The notes beneath the pieces were generated by a model, which was given only the letters and a program-made list of their open reading frames with translations, searched no databases and had not been told where the DNA came from. A stretch of 63,050 nucleotides of DNA from a virus. Position numbers and translations under genes: made by a program. The stretch is taken from IMG/VR virus record IMGVR_UViG_3300045988_082360; one strand, written 5' to 3'. Positions 9,155 to 43,599 of the stretch are shown here, one piece after another; the stretch's first letter is position 1; every line of letters starts with the position of its first letter.

Positions 9155-9200
9155 TAGTTGCACCTCCATAGTTGATTTGTCCTTTGTAATCATATATTAT

Positions 9201-12467: not shown

Positions 12468-12494
12468 CGCCAATCCAGCAGCCCCTATTATGGA
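12467..12494 (+). promoter_or_regulatory. 28-nt conserved motif, copy D (more divergent 5' half)
   Basis: GCGCCAATCCAGCAGCCCCTATTATGGA. Confidence 0.5.
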
Positions 12495-12774: not shown

Positions 12775-12802
12775 CCGCAGATTTTGCAACTCATATTATG
12801 GA
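12775..12802 (+). promoter_or_regulatory. 28-nt conserved motif, copy E, abutting the tRNA-like gene
   Basis: CCGCAGATTTTGCAACTCATATTATGGA. The tRNA-like acceptor stem starts 2 nt later. Confidence 0.6.
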
Positions 12803-12803
12803 G

Positions 12804-12877
12804 AAACAGTTAGCTCAGTGGTAGAGCGCTTCACAAAACCAGTGAAGAGGTGATCGGTTCGAGTCCGATACTGCTTC
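12804..12877 (+). tRNA. tRNA-like gene with an aberrant anticodon arm (identity undeterminable)
   Basis: It has a canonical D-arm (GCTC AGTGGTA GAGC), a 5-nt variable loop and a T-arm (ATCGG TTCGAGT CCGAT). The acceptor is 7 bp with one A-C mismatch. The anticodon arm is 19 nt (CTTCA-CAAAACCAG-TGAAG) with no T in the loop. No CCA is encoded. Confidence 0.5.
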
Positions 12878-12909
12878 TTTACTTTTTATTTTGGACGAAA
12901 GGAGAAAGC

Positions 12910-13668: not shown

Positions 13669-14475
13669 ATGAAACTCGACCTTAAGATCGGGAGGAGCTT
13701 GAAGAAAGCATCTCCCACCATTCTGACATGTATTGGAGCCGCTGGCGTTGTGGCAACCGCGGTTCTGGCTGTCAAGGCAACCCCGAAAGCGGATAGTCTT
13801 ATCAAGGCTGACAGCAGGAGAAATCACGATGGCGACCCTTATGCTGCAACAAAGCTCGAAGCCGTCAAATCATGCTGGAAATGCTACATACCGGCTGCGG
13901 CCACTGGCGTCGCTACGATAATCTGCATCTTTGGAGCGAATACCCTCAATAAGAAGCAGCAGGCGTCTCTTGCCAGCGCCTATGCGCTCGTAAACCGATC
14001 CTATTCTGACTATAAGCATAAATTGAAAGAACTGTATGGCGAAGATGCTCACAAGAAGATCATGGAGTCCATCGCCGCAGAGAAAAGCAGTATGCCTCCT
14101 ATTACGGCTACTGGAGGCTTCTCCAATTCATCTTTGGAGTTTGAAGATGCCAACGAGGAGCAGCGACTCTTCTACGACAGCTTCTCCAAAAGATATTTTC
14201 AGGCAACCATAAGCCAAGTCCTGCAAGCAGAATATCACATCAACAGGAATATGGTTCTCGGCGCGTTCGTAACTCTGAACGATTTCTACGACTTCCTTGG
14301 AATAAGCCATGTCGAAGGCGGAGATGTTGTTGGCTGGTTGCTGTCTGATGGCATGTACTGGATCGACTTCGATAACTCGAAAGCTATGGTTGATGATGGA
14401 CTGAACGGAGAGATTCCGTGTTATGTCGTCGATGCTGAGTTCGGCCCTCAACCAGAATCTGCGTGGGATTATTGA
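13669..14475 (+). CDS. membrane protein, paralog family 3 (copy 1 of 3)
   Basis: It has an N-terminal TM (SPTILTCIGAAGVVATAVLAVKATPKA) and a second TM (CYIPAAATGVATIICIFGA). The C-terminus contains LNDFYDFLGI. It is paralogous to the 15022 and 16965 ORFs. Confidence 0.6.
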   Translation: MKLDLKIGRSLKKASPTILTCIGAAGVVATAVLAVKATPKADSLIKADSRRNHDGDPYAATKLEAVKSCWKCYIPAAATGVATIICIFGANTLNKKQQASLASAYALVNRSYSDYKHKLKELYGEDAHKKIMESIAAEKSSMPPITATGGFSNSSLEFEDANEEQRLFYDSFSKRYFQATISQVLQAEYHINRNMVLGAFVTLNDFYDFLGISHVEGGDVVGWLLSDGMYWIDFDNSKAMVDDGLNGEIPCYVVDAEFGPQPESAWDY

Positions 14476-14479
14476 TTTC

Positions 14480-14507
14480 CCGCAAAAACTACATCGCCTA
14501 TTATGGA
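14480..14507 (+). promoter_or_regulatory. 28-nt conserved motif, copy F
   Basis: CCGCAAAAACTACATCGCCTATTATGGA. Confidence 0.6.
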
Positions 14508-14720: not shown

Positions 14721-15089
14721 ATGACAAATGATACGGTCGTACAAGCACTTCTTGACTATCTCAACGAATCGGATGAACCCGAAATCTATTGGCCACGCCA
14801 TCACTTTGAAGAATCTTGCTTTTCGAGATGGGCGGCATGGGAGATGATCGAGGCAATTTTAGACCATCCATTCGATGATCCGGAAGATGTGATCGAGGAG
14901 TTCACCATGAAAATGGTGATTTTCTCATCTATCGCAGATGGTACGGATGAAGGACTGATATTTTCGATTGCCGCTGATTTCGCCGATGAATGCTTAACAC
15001 TATTTAGAGAGGAGAACTCAAATGACAAAACAAACCATTATCGAGGCGTTGAAAAACGCCCAGAAGTCAATGAAAAAGCACAGCCCTGA
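14721..15089 (+). CDS. hypothetical protein, paralog family 1
   Basis: It contains SRWAAWEMIEAILDHP...IFSIAADFADECLTLF. Its 3' end overlaps the next gene by 68 nt. Confidence 0.5.
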   Translation: MTNDTVVQALLDYLNESDEPEIYWPRHHFEESCFSRWAAWEMIEAILDHPFDDPEDVIEEFTMKMVIFSSIADGTDEGLIFSIAADFADECLTLFREENSNDKTNHYRGVEKRPEVNEKAQP

Positions 15090-15786
15090 GATCCTCACCG
15101 GCATCGGAATTGCCGGGATGATCGCCACCACTGTATCCGCCGTTCGAGCAACGCCAAAGGCTTTGCAACTCATCGACGCCAGAGAAATCAAAGAAAACCG
15201 GCGTCTGAGCAACAAGGAGATCATTGCCACCACATGGAAGTGCTATGTTCCGGCTGCTGTTACAGGGGTGCTGTCCACAGCCTGCCTTGTAGGCGCCAGC
15301 TCTGCAAATCTTCGCCGCAACACTGCTCTTGCAACGGCTTATTCCATCTCCGAAACGGCTCTCAAGGAGTACAAAGAGAAGGCTGTTGAGGTAGTCGGCG
15401 AGAAAAAAGAGCAGGCGATCCGTGATGCAGTTGCCAAGGAGACGCTCACGAAACACCCTCTTGGCGAACGCGAGGTCATCATTACCGGAGGTGGTGATAT
15501 TCTCTGCTTCGACCCCCTTACAAACCGATATTTCAAGTCCGATCGCGACCGCCTGATGCGTGCTATGAATGAACTGAACAAACGAATGCGCGACGAGATG
15601 CGTGTTTCGCTGAATGATTTCTACGATGAGATCGGTCTGAGCGAGGCTGAGGTCGGAGAGCATCTCGGGTGGGACATTGACAACGGAAAAGGCTACATAG
15701 ACCTCGATTTCAGCACACAGTTGGCTGATGATGGAACGCCTTGCCTTGTCGTCGGTCATAACCACCCGCCTATTTACCTTTGGTAA
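15022..15786 (+). CDS. membrane protein, paralog family 3 (copy 2 of 3)
   Basis: It contains SPEILTGIGIAGMIATTVSAVRATPKA, CYVPAAVTGVLSTACLVGA and LNDFYDEIGL. Confidence 0.6.
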   Translation: MTKQTIIEALKNAQKSMKKHSPEILTGIGIAGMIATTVSAVRATPKALQLIDAREIKENRRLSNKEIIATTWKCYVPAAVTGVLSTACLVGASSANLRRNTALATAYSISETALKEYKEKAVEVVGEKKEQAIRDAVAKETLTKHPLGEREVIITGGGDILCFDPLTNRYFKSDRDRLMRAMNELNKRMRDEMRVSLNDFYDEIGLSEAEVGEHLGWDIDNGKGYIDLDFSTQLADDGTPCLVVGHNHPPIYLW

Positions 15787-15814
15787 GCGCAGATTTTGCA
15801 TCTCCTATTATGGA
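15787..15814 (+). promoter_or_regulatory. 28-nt conserved motif, copy G
   Basis: GCGCAGATTTTGCATCTCCTATTATGGA. Confidence 0.6.
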
Positions 15815-16964: not shown

Positions 16965-17933
16965 ATGAAAGCTAATGAAATCATGACTTCCGCAAAGCGT
17001 ACCTTCTCCAAGGTCGGCTTTGGGCTCCAGAAGAAGAGCCCCGAAATTCTTGTCGGCATCGGCATCGTAGGTGCTGTTGCAAGTGCCGTTCTGGCCTGCA
17101 AGGCTACCACAAAGGCAGGTGCCATCGTCGAGGAGTCTAAGAACTCTCTCGCTGATATTCGTGAGGCCAATGAAAACGGCGTCACCAAGGCTGGTGAGTC
17201 CTACTTCGCAGAGGATCGCAGGAAAGATCTCGCCATCGCCTATGTTCAGACAGGCGTGAAGTTCGCAAAGCTGTATGCCCCCGCGGTCATGATCGGTGCA
17301 GTTTCTATCGCCAGCATTCTCGCAAGCCACAACATCATGAAGAAGCGCAACGTCGCTCTGGCGGCTGCTTACGCTGCTGTCGATAAGTCTTTCAAGGATT
17401 ATCGTGACCGCGTAATCGAGCGTTTCGGCGAGCAGGTTGAAAAGGAGCTGCGCTACAACATCAAGGCGCAGGAGATCGAAGAGACCGTCACGGACGACAA
17501 GGGCAAGGAAAAGAAGGTCAAGCAGAATGTGAATGTCGCAGACGAGAACTGGAATGGCTCTGACTACGGCCCTTACGCAAAGGTGTTTGATGATACTCAC
17601 TCCGATTGGAAGCAGGACCCTGAAATGAACCTCTTCTATCTGCGTGCTCGTCAGGCTCAGGCGAATGATATGCTCAAGTCCCAGGGTCACCTCTTCCTGA
17701 ACGAAGTTTACGATATGCTCGGTTTCAAGCGCACCAAAGCCGGCGCTGTTGTCGGTTGGATCTATGACGACAAGAAGCCTTACGGCGACAACTTTGTTGA
17801 TTTCGGTATGACCGAGATTCGTCGTCACGATGCTGATTCGGACGAGTACAAGCGCGCGTTCATTCTGGACTTCAATGTTGTCGGCGACATCACTTCCAAG
17901 ATCGTCGACCACCAGAATGACTATCTCGCATGA
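16965..17933 (+). CDS. membrane protein, paralog family 3 (copy 3 of 3)
   Basis: It contains SPEILVGIGIVGAVASAVLACKATTKA, LYAPAVMIGAVSIASILAS and LNEVYDMLGF. Confidence 0.6.
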   Translation: MKANEIMTSAKRTFSKVGFGLQKKSPEILVGIGIVGAVASAVLACKATTKAGAIVEESKNSLADIREANENGVTKAGESYFAEDRRKDLAIAYVQTGVKFAKLYAPAVMIGAVSIASILASHNIMKKRNVALAAAYAAVDKSFKDYRDRVIERFGEQVEKELRYNIKAQEIEETVTDDKGKEKKVKQNVNVADENWNGSDYGPYAKVFDDTHSDWKQDPEMNLFYLRARQAQANDMLKSQGHLFLNEVYDMLGFKRTKAGAVVGWIYDDKKPYGDNFVDFGMTEIRRHDADSDEYKRAFILDFNVVGDITSKIVDHQNDYLA

Positions 17934-27470: not shown

Positions 27471-28763
27471 ATGGATAACGCAAAAATTATTGCTGTCGAC
27501 TTCGATGGCACTTTGGTTGAAAACAAATGGCCTGAGATCGGTGCACCGATTGAAAAAAACATCGCCAAGGTTAAGGCTGAACAGGAAGCTGGCGCCAAAA
27601 TCATTCTTTGGACGAACCGCGTCGGCGAACCTTTGGAAAAGGCACTTTCGTTCTGCAAAGAGCAGGGTATCCACCTCGATGCTGTCAATGAGAATCTGCC
27701 CGAAATCACAAAAGCATTTGGGACGGACTGCCGGAAAATCTTCGCCAACGAGTATTGGGATGATCGCGCAGTGCCTATGTCCGAGAAGGATATTGGAGAA
27801 TTCTCCGACGGGTTCCACACTTTCAATTCTCTCTATCATCAGCGGCTCATCCTCTTCGCAGCCTTGGTGAACACTTTCCCGACGCTTGCTTGGAAATCCC
27901 ACAAGCATTCGGATGGAGAGGCTCCGTTTGGCGGAGGCTGGTTCATCGTTGGCGTCGACACGCCAAAAGGGCCCTATACCTATCATTACGAGGACAAGGA
28001 CTGGGACCTGTTCCACTGCAAAGAGGTGGCCACTGCCCCTGAGTGGGACGGCCATACCGATAAGGATGTCGAGCGGGTACTTTCCCTTTCCGATGACGAG
28101 AGTGATTGGGCGGCTCGTGAAGTTGCTCTTGCTTCTAAGAAAGAACGCGAAAGTGCCGAAGATAAAGACGACTGGGATTACGGTGTTGCGTGCTATGAGA
28201 GTGCCCTCAGAGCGTATCGGTCTTTGGAACGCGACGGCCACTCCGGTATGAGCATTCAGATCACCAAGAGCATCCTGAACCGCCTCATTGACGGCAAATG
28301 CCTTACCCCCATTGAGGACGATCCTGATATTTGGACTAAGGTCGAGTTTGGTGAGAACGACCCTATCCAGCACTTCCAGTGCAAGCGCATGAGCAGCCTG
28401 TTTAAGGATGTCGCCGAGGACGGTACGGTCACTTACTCGGATGTCAACCGTGTTCAGCTCATCAACAAAGAAAGCCCTGATATTCCGTTCAGAAACGGCT
28501 TCGGTACTCGCCTTATCGACAAGACGTATCCAATCACGCTTCCGTACTTCCCGGCGGACAAGAAGTTCAAGATCATCGTCGAAGAGTTTCTGACCGATGA
28601 GAAAAATGGCGACTTCGATACCGTCGGCTATCTCCAGCTTATTCTTCCCAATGGCAACACCGTTGAGCTGAATGGATATTTCAAAGATGGTCCGGAAGGC
28701 ATGGTTCGCATCGAGCAGGCTGAGTACGAAGAGAGAAAAGCTAACCGGATCGACAAGAAGTAA
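27471..28763 (+). CDS. HAD-superfamily phosphatase-like N-domain fused to an unknown C-terminal domain
   Basis: It has IIAVDFDGTLV (the DxDxT motif) and ILWTNR. The remaining ~300 aa were not recognised. Confidence 0.5.
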   Translation: MDNAKIIAVDFDGTLVENKWPEIGAPIEKNIAKVKAEQEAGAKIILWTNRVGEPLEKALSFCKEQGIHLDAVNENLPEITKAFGTDCRKIFANEYWDDRAVPMSEKDIGEFSDGFHTFNSLYHQRLILFAALVNTFPTLAWKSHKHSDGEAPFGGGWFIVGVDTPKGPYTYHYEDKDWDLFHCKEVATAPEWDGHTDKDVERVLSLSDDESDWAAREVALASKKERESAEDKDDWDYGVACYESALRAYRSLERDGHSGMSIQITKSILNRLIDGKCLTPIEDDPDIWTKVEFGENDPIQHFQCKRMSSLFKDVAEDGTVTYSDVNRVQLINKESPDIPFRNGFGTRLIDKTYPITLPYFPADKKFKIIVEEFLTDEKNGDFDTVGYLQLILPNGNTVELNGYFKDGPEGMVRIEQAEYEERKANRIDKK

Positions 28764-29861: not shown

Positions 29862-30594
29862 AAATGTCGAAGTTCTTGGCTGGGGGCACGCCATTCGAGG
29901 CATGAGGAACCCTAAGAACTCGTGGGCGAAAAGCGATAGTGGCCCAGAATGTCCTTATGGGAAAGAAAAATGTTGCGGAGAATGCCAGCAAAATTTCTGC
30001 ATTGGCCCCAACGATAAGCAACTCATGATGGCCCTCCGCAACGCTGGTACGGATCATCGTAAGTTCATGCGGATGATTACCGTCTATCTCGACATCACTG
30101 CACCGCTGTACTGGTGGAAAGAGTTCGACACCTATAAGGTCGGTACGGTCGCCAACTCCTGCTCGACGATGCACAAAATTACTGACAAGGAGTTTACACT
30201 GGATGATTTTAGTCACGAGCACCTCATTGACTATTGTTTATATTCTTGCAATGAAGTCGATGAACCCGTGATAAACGACGCTCCTCATATTGGGTGCGGA
30301 GGACTTCAGCTTCTTAACCTGACAATTAACGTCCTCAATTATTACAGGGAAAAATATCTTGTAGCGACGAAGACTGAGGAATATACCGGCCTCCCCGCCA
30401 AGGATATTTGGTGGCAGATGATCCAGCTTCTCCCCAGTTCCTACAACCAGAAGCGGACGGTAATGCTGAACTATGAGGTTCTGGCCAATATCTACAAATC
30501 CCGTCGGCATCACAAGCTCGATGAATGGCATACACTTTGCGACCGGATTGAAAATCTGCCTTATTCTGCGTTGATTACCGGCACTGCCGTTTGA
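29848..30594 (+). CDS. ThyX-like (flavin-dependent thymidylate synthase fold) protein, divergent motif
   Basis: It contains ITVYLDITAPLYWWKEFDTYKVGTVANSCSTMH in place of the RHRxxSxxxxSxR signature. It lies in a nucleotide-metabolism neighbourhood. Confidence 0.35.
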   Translation: MLKIENVEVLGWGHAIRGMRNPKNSWAKSDSGPECPYGKEKCCGECQQNFCIGPNDKQLMMALRNAGTDHRKFMRMITVYLDITAPLYWWKEFDTYKVGTVANSCSTMHKITDKEFTLDDFSHEHLIDYCLYSCNEVDEPVINDAPHIGCGGLQLLNLTINVLNYYREKYLVATKTEEYTGLPAKDIWWQMIQLLPSSYNQKRTVMLNYEVLANIYKSRRHHKLDEWHTLCDRIENLPYSALITGTAV

Positions 30595-30637
30595 CACCAC
30601 TCCGGCTGTTATGATACAATCATAAAAAAGAAATCAT

Positions 30638-30665
30638 GCGCAAAAAGTACATCGCCTATTATGGA
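30638..30665 (+). promoter_or_regulatory. 28-nt conserved motif, copy H
   Basis: GCGCAAAAAGTACATCGCCTATTATGGA. Confidence 0.6.
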
Positions 30666-30681: not shown

Positions 30682-30882
30682 ATGGCTGAACGCAACGATT
30701 CTCACCTTCTGGATGGTGGTGATTCTGTGGGTATGACGGATAACCAGTACAAGGGCATGCTGCTTGACCAGTTGGAAGACTGGCAGGAGATCCTTGACCT
30801 GGCAATCGCAGCCGGGAACACCGAGATTCAGAAAAAGGCTGAGAAGCAAATCGCGAAGATCAACGAAAAGCTGAAATTCTAA
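30682..30882 (+). CDS. hypothetical small protein
   Basis: GGAGG lies before ATG 30682, and a terminator-like hairpin follows. Confidence 0.45.
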   Translation: MAERNDSHLLDGGDSVGMTDNQYKGMLLDQLEDWQEILDLAIAAGNTEIQKKAEKQIAKINEKLKF

Positions 30883-33124: not shown

Positions 33125-33201
33125 CAAAACTGCGTGAATTTGCCCCGGTTCTGTCTAATCTAAGATAGAATTCGGGGCTCTTTCATGCGCAAAAATCGTG
33201 G

Positions 33202-33464
33202 CCACTTTTATTTTGAAAAACGGGCTTCTGCCCACTTTCTTTCAGAAACTTGATATATTTGGGCGAGTTTAGAGACTTGTAGAGACGGTTCTGGCCAAAA
33301 AAAGTGGGTTTTTGCCCGGTTTTATTTGAAAAGTGGGCAGGCTGAAACCGTTGGTACACAAGGCTTTGCGGGATTTCTGCCCACTTTCCCACTTTTTTCT
33401 TTAATTAGTGTGAAGAAAAAATGTAAAAAAATATATATAAGTGACGAGAAAAAGTGGGTTTTTG
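33202..33464. repeat. iteron-like array of AAAGTGGG / CCCACTTT (7 copies, both orientations) with an AT-rich block
   Basis: Copies: CCACTTTT 33202-33209; CTGCCCACTTT 33228-33238 and 33377-33387; CCCACTTT 33388-33395; AAAGTGGGTTTTTG 33301-33314 and 33451-33464; AAAGTGGGCAG 33330-33340. The AT-rich block is at 33396-33440. Confidence 0.6.
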
Positions 33465-33517
33465 GCCAAAGCCCGATTTTCCTCAAAAAACTCTGACTTC
33501 CTTTTCGTGCGCGAGTG

Positions 33518-33526
33518 TGATATACT
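33518..33526 (+). promoter_or_regulatory. extended -10 promoter element TGATATACT
   Basis: It has the TGnTATACT form. There is no good -35 at 17 nt. It lies about 7 nt before the start of a long stem structure. Confidence 0.4.
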
Positions 33527-33532
33527 AAGCTT

Positions 33533-33700
33533 GCGACACAATTAAATCTTCTTATCCGCTTCACTATGGGAGAATTACTTGGCAACAAGTGTTTCTCTCT
33601 TAACTCGTTATACCCATAGTGGTGGTAAGAGGATTGTGTCGCAGCAATGAGAGATGCGCTTTTGCAGGGTGCGTCTCTTCGTTGGGGCGCACCTTTTTTA
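33533..33700 (+). ncRNA. structured leader RNA ending in an intrinsic terminator, upstream of the late/packaging operon
   Basis: Nested pairings: GCGACACAAT (33533-33542) with ATTGTGTCGC (33633-33642), and CACTATGGG (33562-33570) with CCCATAGTG (33613-33621). The terminator stem GGTGCG/CGCACC plus T6 is at 33668-33699. Confidence 0.45.
33667..33700 (+). terminator. intrinsic terminator 30 nt before the first late-operon gene
   Basis: GGTGCG-loop-CGCACC followed by TTTTTT. Confidence 0.6.
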
Positions 33701-34405: not shown

Positions 34406-34440
34406 CCGAGACGCTTGAAAAGGTGTCTCGGCTTTTTTTA
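34406..34440 (+). terminator. intrinsic terminator
   Basis: Stem CCGAGAC...GTCTCGG followed by CTTTTTTT. Confidence 0.7.
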
Positions 34441-34455
34441 TGCCCTTTTTGGCTT

Positions 34456-34483
34456 CCGCAGAAAAAACAGGGTCTTTTATGGA
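34456..34483 (+). promoter_or_regulatory. 28-nt conserved motif, copy I (heads the operon containing the polymerase-like gene)
   Basis: CCGCAGAAAAAACAGGGTCTTTTATGGA. Confidence 0.6.
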
Positions 34484-34549
34484 GAAGAGAGAGATGTGTT
34501 ACACATTTCCCTCTCTCCATTTTATTTTTTGTCGAAAGGAGGTCATTTC

Positions 34550-34849
34550 GTGGCCAGAAGTTCCAGACTTGAGAGCGGATTTCAAGACCGTTTAATCGAG
34601 TCATTGAAAGCGTTGTTCCCTGGATGCATGGTTTTCAAGATGGACCAAATTCAGGGACTTCCCGATCTGTTGATTCTTTATGGCGAGAAGTGGGCCTCCC
34701 TCGAATGTAAGAGGTCTGCGACAGCTAAGAAGCGCCCAAATCAGGACTACTATGTCGAGAAGATGAACGATATGTCATTCTCTCGCTTTGTGTGTCCGGA
34801 AAATAAAGAGGAGGTATTGAATGAACTTCAACAGGCATTCCAACCTTGA
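34550..34849 (+). CDS. VRR-NUC / PD-(D/E)xK nuclease
   Basis: AAGGAGG precedes GTG 34550. It carries the D...E-x-K arrangement GLPDLLILYGEKWASLECK. Confidence 0.55.
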   Translation: MARSSRLESGFQDRLIESLKALFPGCMVFKMDQIQGLPDLLILYGEKWASLECKRSATAKKRPNQDYYVEKMNDMSFSRFVCPENKEEVLNELQQAFQP

Positions 34850-35378
34850 AGGTCAGCACGCCTTCCTTGGTGCAAGTAAGTATCACTGGATCAATTACAC
34901 CGATGATAAAATCGCGGACTCCTATGTGAGATTTCTGGCAACACAGAAAGGAACTGTTCTTCACGCATTCGCCGCTCAGTGTATTCTTTTGGGGCAGAAA
35001 CTTCCCAAGTCTCAGAAGACTCTGAACATGTATGTGAATGACGCTATCGGTTATAAGATGACGCCGGAACAGATCCTCTACTATTCCCCGAACTGTTTCG
35101 GAACGACCGATGCGATTTGTTTCCGAAATAATTTTCTTCGCATCCATGATTTGAAGACCGGAGAAATTGATGCTCACATTGAACAGTTGGAGGTCTATGC
35201 CGCTCTGTTCTGTTTGGAGTATCATATTCGTCCAGCCGATATTGAAATGGAACTGCGTATCTACCAGCACGACCAAATTCTGTACCATAAGCCGACTGTC
35301 GAAGATATTCTGCCAATCATGGACAGGATCATCACAGCCGACAAGGTCATCAACAAAATTAGAGAAGAGGAGGGTTAA
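34821..35378 (+). CDS. PD-(D/E)xK (RecB/Cas4-like) nuclease
   Basis: It contains GASKYHW..., GTTDAICF...LRIHDLKTG and QLEVYAALF. Confidence 0.45.
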   Translation: MNFNRHSNLEGQHAFLGASKYHWINYTDDKIADSYVRFLATQKGTVLHAFAAQCILLGQKLPKSQKTLNMYVNDAIGYKMTPEQILYYSPNCFGTTDAICFRNNFLRIHDLKTGEIDAHIEQLEVYAALFCLEYHIRPADIEMELRIYQHDQILYHKPTVEDILPIMDRIITADKVINKIREEEG

Positions 35379-35381: not shown

Positions 35382-38072
35382 ATGGACCTCGTAGAGGAAG
35401 ATATTCTGATGCACTATGGCGTCAAACGGCGCTCTGGGCGCTATCCGTGGGGTTCCGGTGATAACCCTTACCAACATGGCGGCGACTTCCTGGCTCGCGT
35501 TGAAGAGCTTCAGCGGCTCGGCAAAACTGAAAAACAGATTGCTGATGAACTTCATCTTTCGACGACTGACTTGCGGATGCAGGTTCGCGTCGCAAAGCAT
35601 GAACGCCGTGCTCTTCAGGCAGATCGTGCCCGTTCTTTGCGGGAAGACGGTAAGACGCTGGATGAGATCGCCTCAATCCTCGGTTATGCGAATGACTCTT
35701 CTGTTCGCGCACTGCTGAATGAGAATACGGCAGCCAATAAGAATAAGGCGCAAGCCACGGCAGAGATTCTGAAGAAAGAGCTTGCGGAAAAAGGAGCCAT
35801 TGATGTAGGCACCGGCGTTGAGCGGCAGCTTGGCGTTTCTACCGGTGTTCTTCAAGAGGCTCTTTTCATTTTGGAAACAGAGGGCTATAACCGCTATGGC
35901 GTCGGCGTTCCCCAGGTAAACGACCCGAAGAAACGCACGATCACCCCCGTTATTTCCGTTCCTGAGATTGACCAGAGAGAGGTTTATCAGAACCTTGATT
36001 TGGTGAAGTCTGTTGGCGACTACCATTCTACTGATGGTGGCGAGTCTTGGGACAAGCGTGAGTATCCGGCGAGCATTGATTCCAGCCGTGTGAAGATCCT
36101 TTATGGCGATGAGGGTGGCGCACTGAAAGACGGTGTCATTGAGATCCGTCGCGGCGTTGCTGACCTTGATTTGGGAGACTCTCACTATGCTCAAGTTCGT
36201 ATCCTTGTGGATGGTACTCATTACCTCAAAGGAATGGCGATGTATTCTGACGATATGCCCGATGGCGCAGACATTGTCTTTAACACCAACAAGCATACCG
36301 GAACACCTAAGATGGATGTTCTGAAGAAAATTCAGGATGATCCCGACAACCCTTTCGGGGCTTTGATTAAGGCTAATGGCCAGAGTCACTATATCGACGC
36401 CGCCGGCAATGAGAAGCTTTCTGCGATCAACAAGCTGAAAGAAGAGGGCGACTGGGACAAGATGAGTAAAAATCTTTCTTCCCAGTTCCTTTCCAAGCAG
36501 CCCATCCAGCTTATCAAGAAGCAGTTGGATTTGACTTACGCTGATGCTGCTGACGAGTTCTCGGAGATCTGTTCTTTGAACAATCCCACCGTAAAGCGGA
36601 AGCTCCTGTTAGACTTTGCGGATGAGTGCGACTCGGCTGCTGTCCATCTGAAAGCGGCCGCTCTCCCTCGTCAGAGCACTCAGGTCATTCTTCCGCTGAA
36701 TGCGATGAAAGAGACCGAGATCTTCGCCCCGAACTATCGTGATGGCGAAAAGGTCGTACTAATTCGCTATCCGCATGGTGGTACCTTTGAGATACCCGAG
36801 CTTACGGTCAATAACAAAAACCCGACTGCCGTTTCCGTTCTCGGAAAGAACATTCGGGATGCTGTTGGTATCAACCCTAAGGTTGCAGAGCGTCTTTCTG
36901 GTGCTGACTTTGATGGCGACCAGGTCGTTGTCATTCCTACCGGTGGGAGGGTGAAGATCCAATCTACCCCCGCCCTTAAGGATTTGAAAGACTTCGATCC
37001 TAAGACTGATTACTCGACTGAGGGCAAGACTGGCGTTCGGCTCCTTGCAAAGGGTGCTGCTACACAGAGACAGATGGGTGAGATTTCAAATCTCATTACT
37101 GACATGACTCTGAAAGGCGCTACTGAGCCTGAGATCGCAAGAGCGGTCAAACACAGCATGGTCGTCATTGATGCGGCCAAGCACAAGCTCGACTACCGGC
37201 AGTCTGAGAAAGACAATGGTATCGCCGAGCTCAAGAAGAAGTATCAAGGCTTTGACGACGAGACTGGTCACCATGGCGGCGCCTCTACCCTCCTATCCCG
37301 TAGAAAGCAGGATGTTGAGGTACCGGAGCGTCAGGGCAGCGGTGTCATTGATCCTCTGACAGGAAAAGTCGTTTACAAGGAGTCCGGCAGAACTTATGTG
37401 GACCCCCGTACCGGAAAGACGGTAGCAGCAACCACTAAGGTTAAACGCATTCTCGCAGTTGATGATGTTCGTTCGATGTCTTCTGGAACGCTTCAGGAAG
37501 AGGCCTATGCCGACTATGCCAACAAGATGAAAGACCTTGCCGACAAGGCCCGTCTTGAATACAAGGCTACCCCTACTCTGAAGCGCTCTGCCAGTGCGGC
37601 CAAGGCCTTTGAACCCGAAGTGAACCGCCTTATGGCTGCTCTCAAGGTCGCGCAGTTGAATGCTCCTCTTGAACGAGAAGCTCAACGAATTGCAAATGCT
37701 CGTGTAAAAGCAAAGGTTCAGGCAAACAACATTACTGACAAAGATGAGATTTCCAAGATCCGTCGTGCTGCCATCAGTGATGCCAGAAATTCTACTGGCG
37801 CAAGCGGAAAGCGAACTCGCATTACAATCAGCGATGGCGAATGGACTGCAATTCAGTCTGGTGCAATTTCAGACACAACCTTGAGCGAGATCTTGCGCTA
37901 TGCCGAACCGAAAACTGTAAGAGAACGAGCAACGCCGAGAAGAACAACGCAGTTGTCCGATGCTCGCATTAGCAGAATCAAAGCAATGGCAAATTCTGGT
38001 CACACAAATGCTGAAATCGCTGAAGCATTGGGAATTTCGACTTCTGCTGTTTCCAAGTATCTGAATTCATGA
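35382..38072 (+). CDS. YonO/RdRP-like two-barrel RNA polymerase candidate with N- and C-terminal HTH segments
   Basis: It contains VVLIRYPHGG (R462, nt 36765) and SGADFDGDQVVVIP (DFDGD at nt 36906-36920). HTH-like segments are GKTEKQIADELHLSTTDLRMQV, GKTLDEIASILGYANDSSVRALL and GHTNAEIAEALGISTSAVSKYL. Confidence 0.55.
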   Translation: MDLVEEDILMHYGVKRRSGRYPWGSGDNPYQHGGDFLARVEELQRLGKTEKQIADELHLSTTDLRMQVRVAKHERRALQADRARSLREDGKTLDEIASILGYANDSSVRALLNENTAANKNKAQATAEILKKELAEKGAIDVGTGVERQLGVSTGVLQEALFILETEGYNRYGVGVPQVNDPKKRTITPVISVPEIDQREVYQNLDLVKSVGDYHSTDGGESWDKREYPASIDSSRVKILYGDEGGALKDGVIEIRRGVADLDLGDSHYAQVRILVDGTHYLKGMAMYSDDMPDGADIVFNTNKHTGTPKMDVLKKIQDDPDNPFGALIKANGQSHYIDAAGNEKLSAINKLKEEGDWDKMSKNLSSQFLSKQPIQLIKKQLDLTYADAADEFSEICSLNNPTVKRKLLLDFADECDSAAVHLKAAALPRQSTQVILPLNAMKETEIFAPNYRDGEKVVLIRYPHGGTFEIPELTVNNKNPTAVSVLGKNIRDAVGINPKVAERLSGADFDGDQVVVIPTGGRVKIQSTPALKDLKDFDPKTDYSTEGKTGVRLLAKGAATQRQMGEISNLITDMTLKGATEPEIARAVKHSMVVIDAAKHKLDYRQSEKDNGIAELKKKYQGFDDETGHHGGASTLLSRRKQDVEVPERQGSGVIDPLTGKVVYKESGRTYVDPRTGKTVAATTKVKRILAVDDVRSMSSGTLQEEAYADYANKMKDLADKARLEYKATPTLKRSASAAKAFEPEVNRLMAALKVAQLNAPLEREAQRIANARVKAKVQANNITDKDEISKIRRAAISDARNSTGASGKRTRITISDGEWTAIQSGAISDTTLSEILRYAEPKTVRERATPRRTTQLSDARISRIKAMANSGHTNAEIAEALGISTSAVSKYLNS

Positions 38073-38088: not shown

Positions 38089-38355
38089 ATGGCTCAATCA
38101 TGCGCGCTGACTACGACAGATAATCCGTATGATCCCTTTACCCAGTACGATGCTTGGTATCGCTTTGATGAAGGCAAAGGCTATCACTCTTGCGCCTACC
38201 TGGCCCGTATAGCCAGGACCTCTGATCAGCTTTCAGATGCTGAAAACGAACAGGAACTTGAGCGTGCCATTGACGACATCATCAAATACGATCCACTTGG
38301 GATCTACAAAAAAGTAAAAGCAGACACAAAGGATTCGCCTCCCGTGAGTGCATAA
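38089..38355 (+). CDS. conserved-looking small phage protein
   Basis: The pattern is TTTDNPYDPFTQYDAWYRFDEGKGYHSCAYLARIA. RBS GGAAGTGAGAG is upstream. Confidence 0.45.
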   Translation: MAQSCALTTTDNPYDPFTQYDAWYRFDEGKGYHSCAYLARIARTSDQLSDAENEQELERAIDDIIKYDPLGIYKKVKADTKDSPPVSA

Positions 38356-38852
38356 AGGCTTTAGCAGTCTCTTTCGCTCAAATCGGGAGGTTTTATCTTT
38401 GGCTCTGCTTTTGCAACACAATAAGTTTTAACTCCTAATCACCTTTTGCTTAGCGAGACTGCCTTGCTCTCCAAAAGGTATAGGGGGGGGTCGCAAAAAC
38501 AGCACCCCCTCTGCATCGCGGCGGTCTTTGAAAATTCTCCGGGGGATATTTTTGAAAAATATTTTTCGGGGTTGGGGGCAGCCGGCGGGAGTTTTGGGCG
38601 ACGAGACAGGGTTTGAACGGGCCCACAGGGCTGATATTTCACCTCCTGATGTGTTCTTCTTTCCATGGAATTGCCACGACCGGGTCATGCAAGTGCTTTC
38701 TCTACCTCCATCTTTCATTTGGGGATTTCTCCTTTCAACTTGTTCAGCCAGTCAGTTCTGTGGGTTCTTTCAAGCCCTGTCTCAAAGTCCAAATAAGTAA
38801 TACAAAACACAGTGCATACCATGATCAAACACAGCGAGAGGAGGTGGCAAGG
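38356..38852. other. 497-nt gene-free region upstream of the terminase genes (candidate cos/pac or late control region)
   Basis: It has a G8 run at 38483-38490, several G4-5 runs, and a palindrome ATATTTTT-G-AAAAATAT at 38546-38562. ORFs predicted here have non-protein-like sequence. Confidence 0.35.
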
Positions 38853-39933: not shown

Positions 39934-40308
39934 ATGGATACGACTGAAAGCATCCTGACATCAGTGAAGAAGCTTCTCGGAATTGACGAGAGCTACACTC
40001 ACTTTGACGCCGACCTCATCATGCACATCAACTCCGTCTTTTCCATTCTTGGACAGATGGGAGTTGGCCCAAAGAAAGGCTTTGCCATTTCAGGGGCTGA
40101 TGAAAAGTGGTCTGACTTTCTTGAGGATGACCCCGGTCGGCTTGCCCTTGTAAAATCTTATATGCACCTTAAAGTTCGGCTGCTTTTCGACCTGCCTACC
40201 GCTTCCTCTGCTGTTGACGCGATGAACCGTCAGATCAGCGAGTTTGAGTGGCGGCTTTTCGTGGCGGCCGATAATGCTGCAAGAGAGGAGGAAAGTCAAA
40301 ATGGATGA
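39934..40308 (+). CDS. head-tail connector (gp6-like) protein
   Basis: It contains ILTSVKKLLGIDESYTHFDADLIMHINSV...LVKSYMHLKVRLLFD. Confidence 0.5.
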   Translation: MDTTESILTSVKKLLGIDESYTHFDADLIMHINSVFSILGQMGVGPKKGFAISGADEKWSDFLEDDPGRLALVKSYMHLKVRLLFDLPTASSAVDAMNRQISEFEWRLFVAADNAAREEESQNG

Positions 40309-40846
40309 ACTTTGCCACTATGGCATCAAAGGCCAGAAATGGGGCGTTCGCCGTTTTCAGAATTCAGACGGCAGTTACACCTCTGAGGGAAAACGCCGCG
40401 CTCAGCAGCAGGAGAAGAAAGATCCTGTGAAAGAGATGAAAGATGAAGACCTTAGAAAGGCAATCACTCGGTTATCTCTGGAAAACAAATATAAGGATCT
40501 GACCAAAAAGCCGACCCCGCCCTCCAAGCTTGAGTCGACCAAGAAAGCTGTGGATGCCACTTCCGAGCTTGTTAATCGGGCGAAGAAGATGGATCAGGAC
40601 AGCCGCAAGGCTGCGAAGAAAGAGCGGATGGACCTGAGCAAGAAGACCGACAAGGAGCTTCGCGACCAGATCAACCGTGAGCTTTTGGAACGGCAGTACA
40701 ACGATCTGTTTGCCAAGGAGTCGGTGTCCAAAGGCCGCCGCTATCTTTCCGATGTGCTTGACAACGCAGGAACGGTTTTGGCTGTCGGCAGTTCGGCTCT
40801 GAGCATTGCTCTCGCAATTCAGCAGTTGCAGAAGAAGGCGGGGTAA
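40301..40846 (+). CDS. HYGIKGQKWG-motif protein with coiled coil and C-terminal TM
   Basis: The N-terminus is MDELCHYGIKGQKWGVRRFQNSDGSYTSEGKRR. The C-terminus contains AGTVLAVGSSALSIALAI. Confidence 0.5.
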   Translation: MDELCHYGIKGQKWGVRRFQNSDGSYTSEGKRRAQQQEKKDPVKEMKDEDLRKAITRLSLENKYKDLTKKPTPPSKLESTKKAVDATSELVNRAKKMDQDSRKAAKKERMDLSKKTDKELRDQINRELLERQYNDLFAKESVSKGRRYLSDVLDNAGTVLAVGSSALSIALAIQQLQKKAG

Positions 40847-40852: not shown

Positions 40853-42598
40853 ATGGCCCTGTCGAATACTGCTGTTCCCCGGTATTACGGGAAATTTCGT
40901 GAAGCGGTGATTCGGGGTGAGATCCCTGTCTGCAAAGAGATTTCGATGGAGATGAACCGGATCGACGATCTGATCGCGAATCCAGGAATCTATTACGATG
41001 ATAAAGCCGTTGAGGGCTGGATCAAGTATTGCGAGGCAGAGATGACTCTGACGGATGGTTCCGATCTTCACCTCCTTGACAGCTTCAAGCTGTGGGGCGA
41101 GCAGGTATTCGGCTGGTATTACTTTGTGGAGCGCACGGTCTATGAGCCGAACGCGGACGGACGAGGCGGGCACTATGTCAAGAAGATGATCAAGAAGCGG
41201 CTTGTGAACAAGCAATACCTGATCGTCGGACGAGGTGCCGCTAAGTCGATCTATGATTCGTGCATCCAATCATTCTTTGAGAATGTGGACACAAGTACGA
41301 CCCATCAGATCACGACGGCTCCGACCATGAAGCTGGCCGAAGAGGTCATGTCACCGATCCGCACCGCCATCACAAGAGCTCGCGGCCCCGTATTCCAATT
41401 TCTAACCCAAGGCTCACTCCAGAACACGACCGGTTCACAGGCCAACCGCGTCAAGTTGGCTTCGACCAAGAAAGGCATTGAGAACTTTCTGACCGGCTCT
41501 CTCATTGAGATCCGCCCCATGTCGATCAACAAGCTGCAAGGTCTTCGATGCAAGATCGCAACCGTAGACGAGTGGCTCTCCGGCGACATTCGCGAGGATG
41601 TTATCGGCGCTATCGAGCAGGGCGCTTCCAAGGTGGACGACTATCTGATCGTGGCCACCAGTTCGGAGGGTACTGTTCGTAACGGCGCCGGTGACACCAT
41701 CAAAATGGAGCTTATGAGCATTCTCAAAGGGGATTATCCAAACCCGCATGTTTCGATCTGGTGGTACAAGCTCGACTCTGTCGACGAGGTCGGCTATCCT
41801 GAGATGTGGATGAAGGCAAACCCGAACATCGGAAAGACGGTAAGTTACGAGACTTATCAGCTTGATGTGGAACGCGCCGAGAAAGCGCCTGCCGCAAGGA
41901 ATGATATTCTTGCCAAGCGTTTCGGACTGCCGATGGAGGGTTATACCTATTACTTCACCTACGAAGAGACACTGCCGCATCGCAAACGCGATTACTGGCA
42001 GATGGCCTGCGCGCTGGGCGGAGACCTTTCTCAGGGTGACGACTTCTGTTCGTTCACCTTTTTGTTCCCGCTGCGTAATGGTTCCTTTGGCGTGAAGACC
42101 AGAAACTACATTACTTCCAGAACGCTGAATAAGCTGCCCGCTGCTATGCGTAATAAGTATGAGCAGTTTATGGATGAGGGCAGTCTTGTCGTTTTGGATG
42201 GAACAGTTCTGGACCCAATGCAGGTCTATGAGGACTTGGACGAGTACATCGTTGCGTGTGGGTATGATGTCCGCTGCTTTGGCTATGACCCATACAACGC
42301 CAAGGAGTTTGTGGAACGCTGGGCGGCTGAGAACGGCCCGTTCGGCATTGAGAAAGTCATTCAGGGCGCGAAGACGGAGTCCGTTCCATTGGGTGAGCTG
42401 AAGAAGCTGGCCGAAGACCGGATGCTCCTCTTCGATGAAGAGCTGATGACCTATGCCATGGGCAACTGCATCGCCATGGAAGATACCAACGGAAACCGGA
42501 AGCTGATGAAGAAGCGGTACGAGCAGAAAATCGACGCTGTGTCGGCTATGATGGATGCCTATATCGCTTACAAGAGGAATCCGGAAGCATTTGAATAA
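40853..42598 (+). CDS. terL: terminase large subunit
   Basis: 581 aa. It has a Walker A-like LIVGRGAAKS and a Walker B-like IATVDEW. The C-terminal nuclease region contains AMGNCIAMEDTNGNRKL. Confidence 0.8.
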   Translation: MALSNTAVPRYYGKFREAVIRGEIPVCKEISMEMNRIDDLIANPGIYYDDKAVEGWIKYCEAEMTLTDGSDLHLLDSFKLWGEQVFGWYYFVERTVYEPNADGRGGHYVKKMIKKRLVNKQYLIVGRGAAKSIYDSCIQSFFENVDTSTTHQITTAPTMKLAEEVMSPIRTAITRARGPVFQFLTQGSLQNTTGSQANRVKLASTKKGIENFLTGSLIEIRPMSINKLQGLRCKIATVDEWLSGDIREDVIGAIEQGASKVDDYLIVATSSEGTVRNGAGDTIKMELMSILKGDYPNPHVSIWWYKLDSVDEVGYPEMWMKANPNIGKTVSYETYQLDVERAEKAPAARNDILAKRFGLPMEGYTYYFTYEETLPHRKRDYWQMACALGGDLSQGDDFCSFTFLFPLRNGSFGVKTRNYITSRTLNKLPAAMRNKYEQFMDEGSLVVLDGTVLDPMQVYEDLDEYIVACGYDVRCFGYDPYNAKEFVERWAAENGPFGIEKVIQGAKTESVPLGELKKLAEDRMLLFDEELMTYAMGNCIAMEDTNGNRKLMKKRYEQKIDAVSAMMDAYIAYKRNPEAFE

Positions 42599-42612: not shown

Positions 42613-43599
42613 ATGGATTACCTTGACAAGCCTGACCCGCAAACTTTTATCGCTCACCATGGTATCAAAGGCCAGAAATGGGGCATTCGCCGTTTCCAGA
42701 ATGAAGACGGTAGCTTGACAAAGGCGGGAAAAGAGCGATACAATGAACAAAACAGCCCCAATTCGAGTGATAACTCCGAGAACCAAAAGTTTCATTTGAC
42801 TGAAAAGCAGAAGAAATATTGCAAAACCGTTGCGATTGCCACAGGAGCTGCTTTGGTCGTTTATGCTGGCTTTAAGCTCGCAGATAGCGGTGAATTGAAT
42901 AGACTCTGTGAAAAGGCAAAAGAGTTGAGCCTTGGCGCTGACTACAAAAGCTTTTCAAGAAACGATTCTTTTACAGGTGAGATGAGCGTATCGCAAGTAA
43001 AAGAGAAGTTCCTTAATCGCATTAACCCTGAATATGGCAATTCTCTCGGAAGTTTCATGAATTGTAGGCGGTGTACTTTTGCCTATGAGCTTTCAAGGCG
43101 TGGCTATGATGTGCAGGCGACCAAAACTCTTATTGGAACGGGTCAGGACGCCAACGGAATGAATCAAATGCTGTTTGTGCCACGGTTCACGAAAAAAGAA
43201 TACAAGGAAGCTTTGAATGCGTACACTCATGATTCTTCCATCTATGCCGCTAATAACTTTATAAAAAGGCTTACTGGTGGTTTTTCAGAGGACATACATC
43301 TTTCTAAGAAAAATGCCATCAGGGATGTGTATGACGCATTTAGTAAAATGCCTAATTCTGCAAGAGGCGAGTTATCCGTAACGTGGAAGGGGCATAATGG
43401 CGGCCATAGTCTTGCTTGGGAGGTCATCAATAATAAGCCTGTTATTTTTGATTTCCAGACCCATAAGGTATATGAGACACCTGATAAGTTTTCTGAAATC
43501 GCCAACATGTTCGACGGGCTTGATACCGCTACATTATGCCGACTTGATGATAAGGACTTAAATCTCGATCTTCTTCGGCGATGGGTAAAGCATAGCTAA
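42613..43599 (+). CDS. HYGIKGQKWG-motif protein with TM and a papain-fold (Cys-His-Asp) toxin/protease-like C-domain
   Basis: The N-terminus contains HHGIKGQKWGIRRFQNEDGSLTKAGKERY. TM helix VAIATGAALVVYAGFKLA. The C-domain contains FMNCRRCTFAYELSRRGYDV...GGHSLAWEVINNKPVIFDFQTH. Confidence 0.45.
   Translation: MDYLDKPDPQTFIAHHGIKGQKWGIRRFQNEDGSLTKAGKERYNEQNSPNSSDNSENQKFHLTEKQKKYCKTVAIATGAALVVYAGFKLADSGELNRLCEKAKELSLGADYKSFSRNDSFTGEMSVSQVKEKFLNRINPEYGNSLGSFMNCRRCTFAYELSRRGYDVQATKTLIGTGQDANGMNQMLFVPRFTKKEYKEALNAYTHDSSIYAANNFIKRLTGGFSEDIHLSKKNAIRDVYDAFSKMPNSARGELSVTWKGHNGGHSLAWEVINNKPVIFDFQTHKVYETPDKFSEIANMFDGLDTATLCRLDDKDLNLDLLRRWVKHS

Follow-up and report, generated by a model that had tools for sequence, protein, structure and literature searches.

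How might a phage polymerase made of a single polypeptide find the genes that it is to transcribe? The question is raised by a 63,050-nt stretch of viral DNA (IMG/VR virus record IMGVR_UViG_3300045988_082360; the window, by which we mean the whole stretch analysed), where one open reading frame (ORF) appears to join the catalytic core of a two-barrel RNA polymerase (RNAP) to helix-turn-helix (HTH) modules at both of its ends. We propose, at a probability of roughly 0.7, that the product is the phage's own DNA-dependent two-barrel transcriptase, with HTH modules in cis and probably devoted to the late genes. The gene and the parts of its predicted core are the following:

35382-38072, + strand: predicted gene for the HTH-fused two-barrel polymerase (ATG start, 896 aa; full-length match to PHROG 4291; Foldseek matches to RDR2, QDE-1 and P74 gp62)
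36090-36443, + strand: candidate beta-like double-psi beta-barrel, DPBB-B (residues ~237-354; YAQVRI at 269-274, HYLKGMAMY at 280-288 and VFNTNK at 299-304; a beta-strand cluster in both models)
36678-36938, + strand: predicted beta-prime-like barrel, DPBB-A (residues 433-519; R462-Y-P464-H465 at nt 36765-36776; metal loop D509-F-D511-G-D513 at nt 36906-36920)
37041-37184, + strand: two long conserved helices (residues 554-601, MGEISNLITDMT and ARAVKHSMVVIDAAKHKL; helices 554-577 and 582-601)

The original prediction, drawn from the sequence letters alone, had picked out this ORF for two strings, and both are found where it had placed them. Residues 456-476 read EKVVLIRYPHGGTFEIPELTV and include LIRYPH (R462 and P464), while residues 505-519 read LSGADFDGDQVVVIP, with DFDGD as D509-D513 (nt 36906-36920). 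The order of the two motifs was given correctly; the gap of 45 residues between them was an approximation, the distance being 47 residues from R462 to D509 and 49 from E456 to L505. Alignments of 12 and of 33 diverse homologues show no variation at R462, P464, D509, D511 or D513, nor at Q271, R273, K283, K304 or H465. Homologues for alignment were collected with a profile of phage homologues that left out the window protein; an initial search gave only near-identical gut sequences. The same two alignments contain the invariant blocks HYGxxRxSGRYPWGSG, YAQVRI...HYLKGMAMY...FNTNK, LIRYPHGGxFEIPELTVNN, LSGADFDGD, MGxISNLITDMT and ARAVxHSMVVIDAxKHKL, and conservation within the protein is highest in its central 480 residues. 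Along the single 896-aa chain, the region of K283 and K304 comes first, a helical connector follows (375-421), and the region of R462 and D509 comes last. Eight residues invariant in all two-barrel enzymes have been defined, with R-x-P being R446/P448 of Rpb1 (PMC2919709); the beta-type barrel of these enzymes contributes a pair of conserved lysines plus one acidic residue (Rpb2 K979, K987 and D837). Here, the invariant K283 (in HYLKG) and K304 (in FNTNK) sit in the beta-strand cluster 237-354, and they may be the equivalents of the catalytic lysines. The helices that follow the second barrel hold a further set of invariant residues (M565, G566, S569, N570, L571, I572, D574, M575, H591, S592, M593, D597, K600 and H601); by the domain order of solved single-chain two-barrel RNAPs, residues 554-601 would occupy the position of the bridge helix. 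Almost the whole protein (residues 4-895) matches positions 7-906 of the 909 in the profile PHROG 4291, 'RNA-dependent RNA polymerase', with E = 0 and 1202 bits.

Sequence searches of the PDB, with the single sequence or with a 12-sequence profile, returned only HTH proteins and designed repeats and no match for the core. Because these searches reached the HTH parts only, structures were predicted. A full-length AlphaFold model made with 33 sequences (predicted local distance difference test, pLDDT, 72.5; predicted template modelling score, pTM, 0.56) has beta clusters at 237-354 and 433-519 and long helices between them. Compared with the PDB by Foldseek, this model found two-barrel polymerases only, with RDR2 at the top (E 1.8e-4, probability 1.0) and Pol IV, Pol II, African swine fever virus and bacterial beta-prime subunits after it; in a viral library, the top matches were phage proteins annotated as RNA-dependent RNA polymerase (RdRP), at 11-13% identity and probability 1.0. 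A model of the core only (residues 225-705, pLDDT 71.8) matched QDE-1 with E 1.2e-10 over ~500 columns (TM-score 0.38-0.45), P74 gp62 with E 1.3e-6 and RDR2 with E 2e-6, all at probability 1.0, and every remaining match was an RNAP large subunit. The candidate DPBB-B region falls within the ~500-column alignment to QDE-1. As for DPBB-A, its strands in the full-length model are 433-438, 457-461, 473-476, 494-497 and 514-519, and the DFDGD loop is placed between the last two of these, inside the Foldseek alignments to QDE-1 and beta-prime. The metal loop itself, GADFDGDQVVVI, resembles NADFDGDQMAVH of Escherichia coli beta-prime. The AlphaFold and Foldseek comparison that had been suggested along with the prediction therefore led to polymerases (QDE-1, RDR2 and beta-prime), and not to a non-polymerase family without the barrel fold. 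Its central claim, a single-chain two-barrel polymerase of the RdRP/YonO type with fused HTHs, is upheld by the PHROG profile match, the Foldseek matches and the invariance of R-x-P and D-x-D-G-D, and the models support the view that the protein belongs to the two-barrel superfamily, on the side of RdRP, QDE-1 and YonO.

Outside the core, three further elements of the protein bear on how it could find its template:

35520-35717, + strand: two N-terminal HTH-like segments (residues 47-68 and 90-112; sub-threshold Pfam HTH matches, a match to 8vd6, and a helical model)
37959-38066, + strand: C-terminal three-helix HTH of the sigma-70 region 4/LuxR type (residues 860-895; the string originally quoted is 873-894)
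35406-35459, + strand: conserved N-terminal peptide ILMHYGVKRRSGRYPWGSG, predicted to be disordered (residues 9-26; pLDDT <50 for residues 1-32)

All three HTH segments of the original prediction are present (47-68, 90-112 and 873-894), and Pfam divides them. The C-terminal one exceeds the gathering scores of Sigma70_r4_2 (29.4 vs 25.7 bits), HTH_23 (29.2 vs 24.6), GerE (27.4 vs 23.5) and also HTH_24; in the model it has helices at 860-871, 876-883 and 887-895, and its G884 is invariant. The N-terminal pair, in contrast, stays below the Pfam thresholds (Sigma70_r4_2, E 0.007; HTH_18, E 0.003). These two segments match a solved HTH-repeat protein, 8vd6 (E 5.6e-6), helices are modelled there at 50-56, 61-88, 93-100 and 105-112, and G47 and G90 are invariant. 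Still closer to the N-terminus, the putatively disordered peptide has H11, G13, S18, G19, R20, Y21, G24 and G26 invariant across two host phyla. Membership of DUF7211 (PF23847, a HYGxKGxKWG profile) was considered for this end of the polymerase and rejected, at 17.3 bits against a gathering score of 27. A related DUF7211 peptide, HYGIKGQKWGVRRFQN, occurs in two ORFs that flank the large terminase gene, 40244-40846 (29.2 bits, which passes) and 42613-43599 (23.0 bits). One of these two ORFs has a papain-fold glutamine-deamidase toxin domain together with a 'virion structural protein' PHROG match, and is missing from two near-identical prophage copies. It is tempting to speculate that the HYGxxRxSGRYPWGSG and DUF7211 peptides may be a shared docking or packaging peptide.

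The protein is far from alone. Full-length homologues were found by tblastn in 250 phage records, all but one of which cover at least 80% of the query; their hosts are Arthrobacter (95), Gordonia (55), Streptomyces (54) and Lactococcus (13), the remainder being Curtobacterium, Microbacterium, Rhodococcus, Bifidobacterium and Faecalibacterium (phage FP_oengus). Identity to the phage homologues is about 38-55%, and their annotations differ from record to record: 'HTH DNA-binding domain protein', 'hypothetical', 'RNA-dependent RNA polymerase', 'putative RNA polymerase', and even 'tail fiber' and 'excise'. When 1.84 billion cluster representatives (50% identity clusters) were searched with a profile, 1,186 proteins scored E <= 1e-30. 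Among the 150 best representatives, almost every one aligns end to end (positions 5-882), so the layout of HTH, core and HTH is the norm of the family. Two proteins, P0306 (1789 aa) and P0329 (1809 aa), have the core (profile positions ~113-840) as the C-terminal half of a double-length protein, with the usual N-terminal region absent.

The architecture had been predicted to be unusual. This part of the prediction does not hold, since it is standard among at least 1,186 clusters and had been described before by Koert et al. (2021 preprint, bioRxiv 10.1101/842583). That work treated the same family, comprising the 'putative RNA polymerase' of FP_oengus and its homologues in an actinophage supercluster and in 1706-like phages; it obtained by HHpred, with a family alignment, a probability of 95.7% to Pfam RdRP over 286 columns, and it reported the DxDGD loop, the HTHs at both ends and the standing of the gene as a signature of the group. 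Promoters, the box cluster and the leader hairpin, to which we return below, are not discussed there. Similarly, the protein of Lactococcus phage 1706 had been listed as one of five YonO-like families (Ruprich-Robert and Thuriaux, PMC2919709). The family is thus already catalogued and computationally interpreted, and the window protein is a further member.

What does the genome around the gene say about its role? The window ends in an exact 55-bp direct repeat (1-55 and 62996-63050), which makes it a circular assembly of ~62,995 bp. A tyrosine integrase is encoded on the - strand at 7919-9193. The identical polymerase recurs in contigs 210-325 kb long and in an NCBI genome of 2.86 Mb that bears the name Agathobaculum butyriciproducens, and 5,412 blocks of the assembly collection list the protein. 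The integrase and the identical genes in the A. butyriciproducens genome show this to be a common temperate gut phage. Next to the polymerase gene lie:

34406-34431, + strand: intrinsic-terminator-like hairpin closing the upstream transcription unit (11-pair stem, then CTTTTTTTAT)
34550-34849, + strand: first gene of the operon, an endonuclease (VRR-Nuc type by orthologue annotation; PHROG 93, E 6.5e-14)
34821-35378, + strand: second gene of the operon, a Cas4-like exonuclease (PHROG 3953, E 8e-83; Pfam DUF2800; orthologues annotated as Cas4 family)
38089-38355, + strand: conserved 88-aa ORF after the polymerase gene (PHROG 4303, E 8e-37)

As had been predicted, the polymerase gene, from 35382, comes third in a tight operon headed by a motif copy, behind the endonuclease and exonuclease genes. 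The most likely start of the endonuclease is the GTG at 34550, after an AAGGAGG box, and near-identical contigs carry a 99-aa gene call. Endonuclease, Cas4-like exonuclease, polymerase and small ORF form an operon common to 12 relatives (eight named host genera and a saliva contig); the small ORF follows the polymerase gene in 11 of the 12, the exception being Siphovirus contig89, whose next annotated ORF is on the opposite strand. Downstream of the operon come a ~500-nt non-coding gap (38356-38852), an HNH endonuclease, the large terminase (40853-42598), the portal (43910), a head protease/capsid fusion, the tape measure and the tail genes, so that the polymerase operon is the final unit ahead of the packaging and structural genes. 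The linear genomes of actinophages and lactococcal phages have the operon last before their right end; after circularisation it would therefore directly precede the terminase and structural genes, as it does in the window. The gap 38356-38852 has no convincing ORF and no RNA family match, its position matches the genome ends of the linear relatives, and it may be a cos/pac site, a late promoter or both. No sigma factor was identified among the window ORFs scanned, many of the small ones being unannotated. ORF 9698-10297 was considered as a sigma/ArpU-like factor and rejected: it has no Pfam or NCBIfam match, and its sole PHROG, 11237, is of unassigned function.

The operon position and the precedent of YonO are our reasons for proposing a late-gene transcriptase. 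For YonO, DNA-dependent RNAP activity has been demonstrated: beginning at a point shortly downstream of its own gene, it transcribes the late genes of SPbeta as a single operon (Forrest et al. 2017, PMC5467207); whether it recognises a promoter unaided was left open in that study. In the window protein, the beta-like barrel (~237-354) would supply basic residues and the beta-prime-like barrel (433-519) would carry R462-x-P464 and the Mg-binding loop D509-x-D511-G-D513. Within the lytic programme, the enzyme would transcribe one portion, probably the late region that follows it, and the fused HTHs would provide the DNA or promoter recognition that cellular enzymes get from sigma. We infer DNA-dependent activity, the target genes, promoter selection by the HTHs and any reading of the 28-nt motif described below.

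Several observations weigh against this proposal. Confidence in the models is moderate, with pTM at 0.49-0.56 and global TM-scores no higher than 0.45. Pfam RdRP (PF05183) gives a weak match over residues 500-607, 14.7 bits (E 0.012) against a gathering score of 23.8 for a single-sequence query. The likeness to YonO that the original prediction had drawn is borne out in motif order, spacing and fold, and does not extend to alignable sequence similarity: hhalign of YonO against the 33-sequence family profile gave a probability of 2.5% and no alignment, in a comparison of low power (one template, Neff 2.1). QDE-1, the best structural match, is mainly RNA-dependent, which leaves RNA as a conceivable template. 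No second repeated intergenic motif that could be a late promoter was found beyond words resembling a ribosome-binding site (RBS), the late region included; since none was found there, the late-gene role is argued from position and analogy. Moreover, the nuclease partners in the operon and the helicase neighbours upstream would also suit a role in replication or recombination, and the searchable literature yielded no enzymatic or biochemical data for any HTH-fused member of the family.

If the HTHs select promoters, the DNA ahead of the operon is the natural place to look for a target:

34454-34484, + strand: motif copy I, heading the operon (TTCCGCAGAAAAAACAGGGTCTTTTATGGAG, 37.5 bits)
10496-10522, 11072-11098, 11588-11614, 12468-12494, 12776-12802, 14481-14507 and 15788-15814, + strand: seven further copies, in the region just after the integrase gene
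30639-30665, + strand: eighth further copy, upstream of ORF 30682-30882

The 28-nt string CCGCAGAAAAAACAGGGTCTTTTATGGA, which the original prediction had noticed, is present at 34456-34483 and is unique in the window at up to three mismatches, and it proves to be one of nine degenerate copies, all on the + strand. Aligned on TTATGGA, they give the consensus ttTtcCGCAgAt..tgCA.c.CCTaTTATGGA. A weight matrix built from the same nine sites that it scores gives the copies 35-44 bits, everything else in the 63 kb (both strands) at most 12 bits, and shuffled sequence a maximum of ~10. The copies lie at 10.5-15.8 kb (seven), at 30.6 kb (one) and at the operon (one), and are absent from the structural region. 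Four are directly followed by an AAGGAG-type RBS and several stand just downstream of intrinsic terminators. A tRNA-Val gene (anticodon AAC, 12803-12878) begins one base after the copy at 12776-12802, so a transcription start there would fall at or next to the mature tRNA 5' end. In a relative (L014) that is ~97% identical around the 30.6-kb copy, this copy differs at non-conserved positions alone. We regard the nine copies as promoter-like. A standard sigma-70 promoter was rejected for them: a consensus scan calls none of the nine sites, they have no TTGACA-type -35 element, and in three of them a T replaces the key A at position 2 of the -10-like box; a promoter that uses the -10 box alone is compatible with these data. 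A sigma-54 promoter, suggested by the TTGCA-like part, was rejected as well, the GG/GC spacing being 2 nt too short and GCA being ACA in four copies. At 30591-30665 a near-consensus sigma-70 promoter (TTGACA-18-TACAAT, with TG) stands ~10 nt upstream of the 30639 copy, and two promoter-like elements are thereby stacked.

Related elements are found in other phages of the family. FP_oengus has CGCGATAAAAACATGCCCTTTTATGGGG ~60 nt upstream of its orthologous operon, with the top weight-matrix score in its 42.7 kb (14.9 bits); its other possible sites are a pattern match at 13902 and a borderline weight-matrix score at 12727. Arthrobacter phage Mudcat has CGCTAGAATTACACGGGGTATAATGAGG upstream of the operon with identical spacing, by a relaxed pattern that was partly fitted post hoc and for which ~0.01 chance matches would be expected in the locus. 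Streptomyces, Curtobacterium and Microbacterium relatives have a similar -10-like box and then a purine-rich start, for example TTTAATAGAAGGGA. The octamer TGATATTT of FP_oengus (L001, 8639-51344) was tried as a promoter and rejected; this strongly orientation-biased word has 27 occurrences on the + strand against none on the other, is mostly intragenic and is unrelated to the window motif.

Two further elements lie between the upstream genes and the operon:

34481-34518 (hairpin) and 34519-34531 (T-run), + strand: promoter-proximal, terminator-like leader hairpin with T-run, just before the RBS at 34536-34542
33217-33475, both orientations: six (GGCCAAAA/ctg)CCCACTTTT boxes around an AT-rich tract, in the 494-nt non-coding region 33125-33618 upstream of the operon

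The leader hairpin folds with -19.3 kcal/mol (z = -5.3), and none of 200 shuffles folds as well. An analogous hairpin with a U-run occurs in FP_oengus (z -4.3; L001:19068-19115) and in Gordonia phage Perkunas (z -4.9), while five other relatives show it weakly or not at all; the window and FP_oengus keep the structure despite differing in sequence. The boxes are at 33231, 33308, 33337, 33380, 33388 and 33458, and 350 nt contain 12 box words where 0.25 are expected. The same (GGCCAAAA/ctg)CCCACTTTT box is found upstream of the operon in FP_oengus (L001:18257-18450) and Mudcat (L003:1680-1930), and no cluster was found in the stretches examined of Bilo, Perkunas and Jaylociraptor. The cluster looks like an origin or a regulatory binding platform. 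We treat the operon-proximal element, the leader hairpin and the box cluster as leads, not as findings.

Which enzyme would read the nine copies? The host RNAP, alone or with a small phage factor, could use them as early or middle promoters, with the polymerase acting later and elsewhere from another promoter, for example in the ~500-nt gap 38356-38852, and we put the chances of this a little short of even. Such a division of labour fits the YonO scheme, in which YonO is produced by the host RNAP and then fires a single late promoter situated downstream of yonO. It agrees with the TATTAT -10-like box, the T-rich DNA upstream of it and the clustering of copies near the integrase and ahead of the replication genes; moreover, the near-consensus sigma-70 promoter directly upstream of the 30639 copy implies that host promoters exist in this genome. 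However, a -35 match is missing, the -10-like box varies at its position 2, and sigma-A makes no use of the conserved CGCA and RCA positions; the ORFs scanned (many small ones are unannotated) yielded neither a sigma factor nor an activator, and the repeat analysis gave no candidate late promoter. We could also speculate that the polymerase reads the motif itself, its HTHs recognising the nine CGC-N7-RCA-N5-(T/C)(A/T)TTATGGA copies and the hairpin after copy I stopping the host RNAP only. Because copy I heads the polymerase's own operon, expression would then be self-amplifying, which extends the positive autoregulation suggested in the original prediction, and transcription begun at copy I could continue as far as the late genes. 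The motif has a sharp definition and keeps to one strand, often stands after terminators and before an RBS or a tRNA, and is missed by the sigma-70 scan, with no TTGACA-type -35 and T at -10-like position 2 in three of nine copies. An element of the same spacing lies upstream of the orthologous operon in FP_oengus and the Arthrobacter phage, and TTTA(A/T/G)T followed by AGAAGG boxes in Streptomyces and Curtobacterium phages; with such elements conserved across host phyla, a phage-encoded reader is easier to suppose. The leader hairpin with its U-run is non-random in three lineages, YonO is without the flap that mediates hairpin-dependent termination (PMC5467207), and P23-45 offers a precedent for multi-copy promoters of a phage RNAP. 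Self-reading is nevertheless doubtful. It has a bootstrapping problem, which reading by the host enzyme removes: on prophage induction, another enzyme must first transcribe the gene behind the terminator and the motif. In addition, seven copies lie beside the integrase and ahead of the replication genes, the expected place of early promoters for host RNAP, six of the nine have TATTAT, a good -10 box for sigma-A, and FP_oengus has only two possible sites in 42.7 kb beyond its operon copy.

The boldest reading would be a self-sufficient, sigma-independent, promoter-specific enzyme whose HTHs read a promoter common to two phyla and which ignores the leader terminator, giving a self-amplifying switch for the operon and the late region. 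We consider this unlikely, and equally unlikely that the promoter is CGC-N7-RCA-N5-TATTATGG here and a variant of the TTTAAT-AGAAGG type elsewhere. The late region would then be driven as one unit by read-through across the genome junction, with the further possibility that the invariant N-terminal HYGxxRxSGRYPWGSG peptide docks the enzyme to a conserved partner. Other readings take the protein away from late transcription. It might make primers or activating transcripts at an origin formed by the CCCACTTTT box cluster, bound by the HTHs. The VRR-Nuc-type endonuclease and Cas4-like exonuclease partners, the helicase genes just upstream in relatives and the origin-like cluster, one locus per genome and preserved ahead of the operon in phages from two phyla, all suit this idea, and the polymerase is among the few DNA-binding proteins conserved in the phage group. 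We find it improbable, given that the phage already has a 1341-aa protein of the primase/helicase-polymerase type (DUF5906; 'helicase/polymerase' in FP_oengus), that the characterised phage two-barrel enzymes are all transcriptases, and that the cluster is missing in the stretch examined of Bilo, Perkunas and Jaylociraptor. A similarly poor prospect, slightly poorer in our judgement, is an enzyme that copies or amplifies RNA, such as regulatory or anti-defence RNAs. Its best structural matches are indeed the RNA interference polymerases QDE-1 and RDR2, and PHROG and RefSeq name the family 'RNA-dependent RNA polymerase', but the database names were carried over from Pfam RdRP. On this side of the superfamily YonO is the one bacterial-virus enzyme that has been characterised, and it uses DNA as its template; QDE-1 also has DNA-dependent activity (PMC9508822); three DNA-binding HTHs and a double-stranded DNA phage genome likewise argue for DNA templates. 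Finally, automatic NCBI and JGI names see the HTH alone (winged-HTH, NarL/FixJ-type, HTH DNA-binding domain protein), as if the protein were a DNA-binding regulator with a catalytically dead central domain. This is very hard to believe: the central 480 residues are the most conserved, the catalytic signature is fully invariant in relatives of 38-55% identity across two phyla, and the fold matches active polymerases.

Beyond the polymerase and its promoter-like sequences, the window contains other features worth recording. At 13669-14475, 15022-15786 and 16965-17933, in the motif-rich region, are three paralogues with a predicted membrane anchor (PHROG 2152, E 1e-79 to 1e-84). A module resembling a diversity-generating retroelement spans 1823-5937 and includes a 970-aa protein with immunoglobulin-like repeats (1823-4735), an RT-18 RNA (Rfam, 4641-4747, 66.9 bits) and a reverse transcriptase (4732-5937, RVT_1); a quick BLAST of the ranges tried found no template/variable repeat pair. 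The ORF at 27471-28763, likely an anti-defence gene, has a product of 430 aa that combines WDGH and Tad3 (Thoeris inhibitor) domains.

Single-chain two-barrel polymerases are viewed as models for the ancestor of all cellular RNA polymerases. Few of them have been studied (YonO, QDE-1 and the RDRs, the crAss-like gp66, and gp64 and gp96 of P23-45), and how they find promoters is largely open. An abundant family (1,186 clusters and ~250 sequenced phages) with DNA-recognition modules fused in cis to the core is thus a good system in which to ask how a minimal two-barrel enzyme initiates specifically. It also comes with concrete templates: a nine-copy motif, a conserved operon copy, a promoter-proximal terminator and a box cluster common to phyla. 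Most database records call the protein an HTH regulator only, which is misleading. With the family itself already described, the remaining interest lies in an abundant minimal RNAP with cis HTHs that its promoter, leader and box elements make testable.

How does the window protein compare with the known systems? Bacterial RNAP offers the most familiar reference. Its beta-prime subunit has NADFDGDQMAVH where the window protein has GADFDGDQVVVI, with R-x-P upstream in both, and sigma-70 region 4 has its counterpart in the C-terminal HTH, which matches Pfam Sigma70_r4_2 above threshold. In contrast to the bacterial enzyme, the window core is made of one chain and lacks separate beta, alpha and omega subunits, and the HTH is fused and not a dissociable sigma; a contact of this HTH with a -35 element is hypothetical. 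Among phage transcriptases, P74-26 gp62 (8f5m_A, E 1.3e-6) and, weakly, phi14:2 gp66 (6vr4_A, E 0.03) match the window protein at 14-15% identity. P23-45 gp64 and P74-26 gp62 are non-virion RNAPs and phi14:2 gp66, of ~2,200 aa, is packaged in the virion; these phage enzymes have their own multi-copy promoter motifs. P23-45 and P74-26 (Thermus) and phi14:2 (Cellulophaga) are lytic phages, and the published account mentions no HTHs in their RNAPs. The closest structural matches, QDE-1 of Neurospora and plant RDR2, are single-chain two-barrel enzymes at 11-15% identity. RDRs have a Q-x-R...KG motif in their first barrel, as the window protein does in its candidate one. However, QDE-1 and RDR2 are eukaryotic, mainly RNA-templated and without HTHs, and their N-terminal domains are absent from the window protein.

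YonO is similar in being a single chain of ~840-900 aa with both barrels, the beta-like one first. It has VRLPWVKG (265-272), then ~220 aa, ILRSPH (490-495) and FDNDGD (534-539), with 43 residues from R to D; the window protein has QVRI..HYLKG, then ~180 aa, LIRYPH and DFDGD, with 47 from R to D, in the same motif order. Moreover, yonO lies just upstream of the late/structural block of SPbeta, a temperate siphovirus, as the window polymerase gene does in its own genome. The two differ in that YonO's activity is proven and that of the window protein is predicted, and in that no HTH modules are reported for YonO (database scans and literature) while three are fused here. Closest of all are the proteins of its own family, with FP_oengus AUV56548.1 at 54% identity over the full length and the actinophage and lactococcal proteins at 38-51%. 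The FP_oengus, actinophage and 1706-like homologues share the HTH-core-HTH layout, the invariant motifs and an operon placed before the structural genes or the genome end. Unlike the phages of this comparison set, the window phage is temperate, with an integrase and a copy integrated in the Agathobaculum butyriciproducens genome, and it has nine copies of the motif, of which only the one next to the operon is clearly common to FP_oengus.

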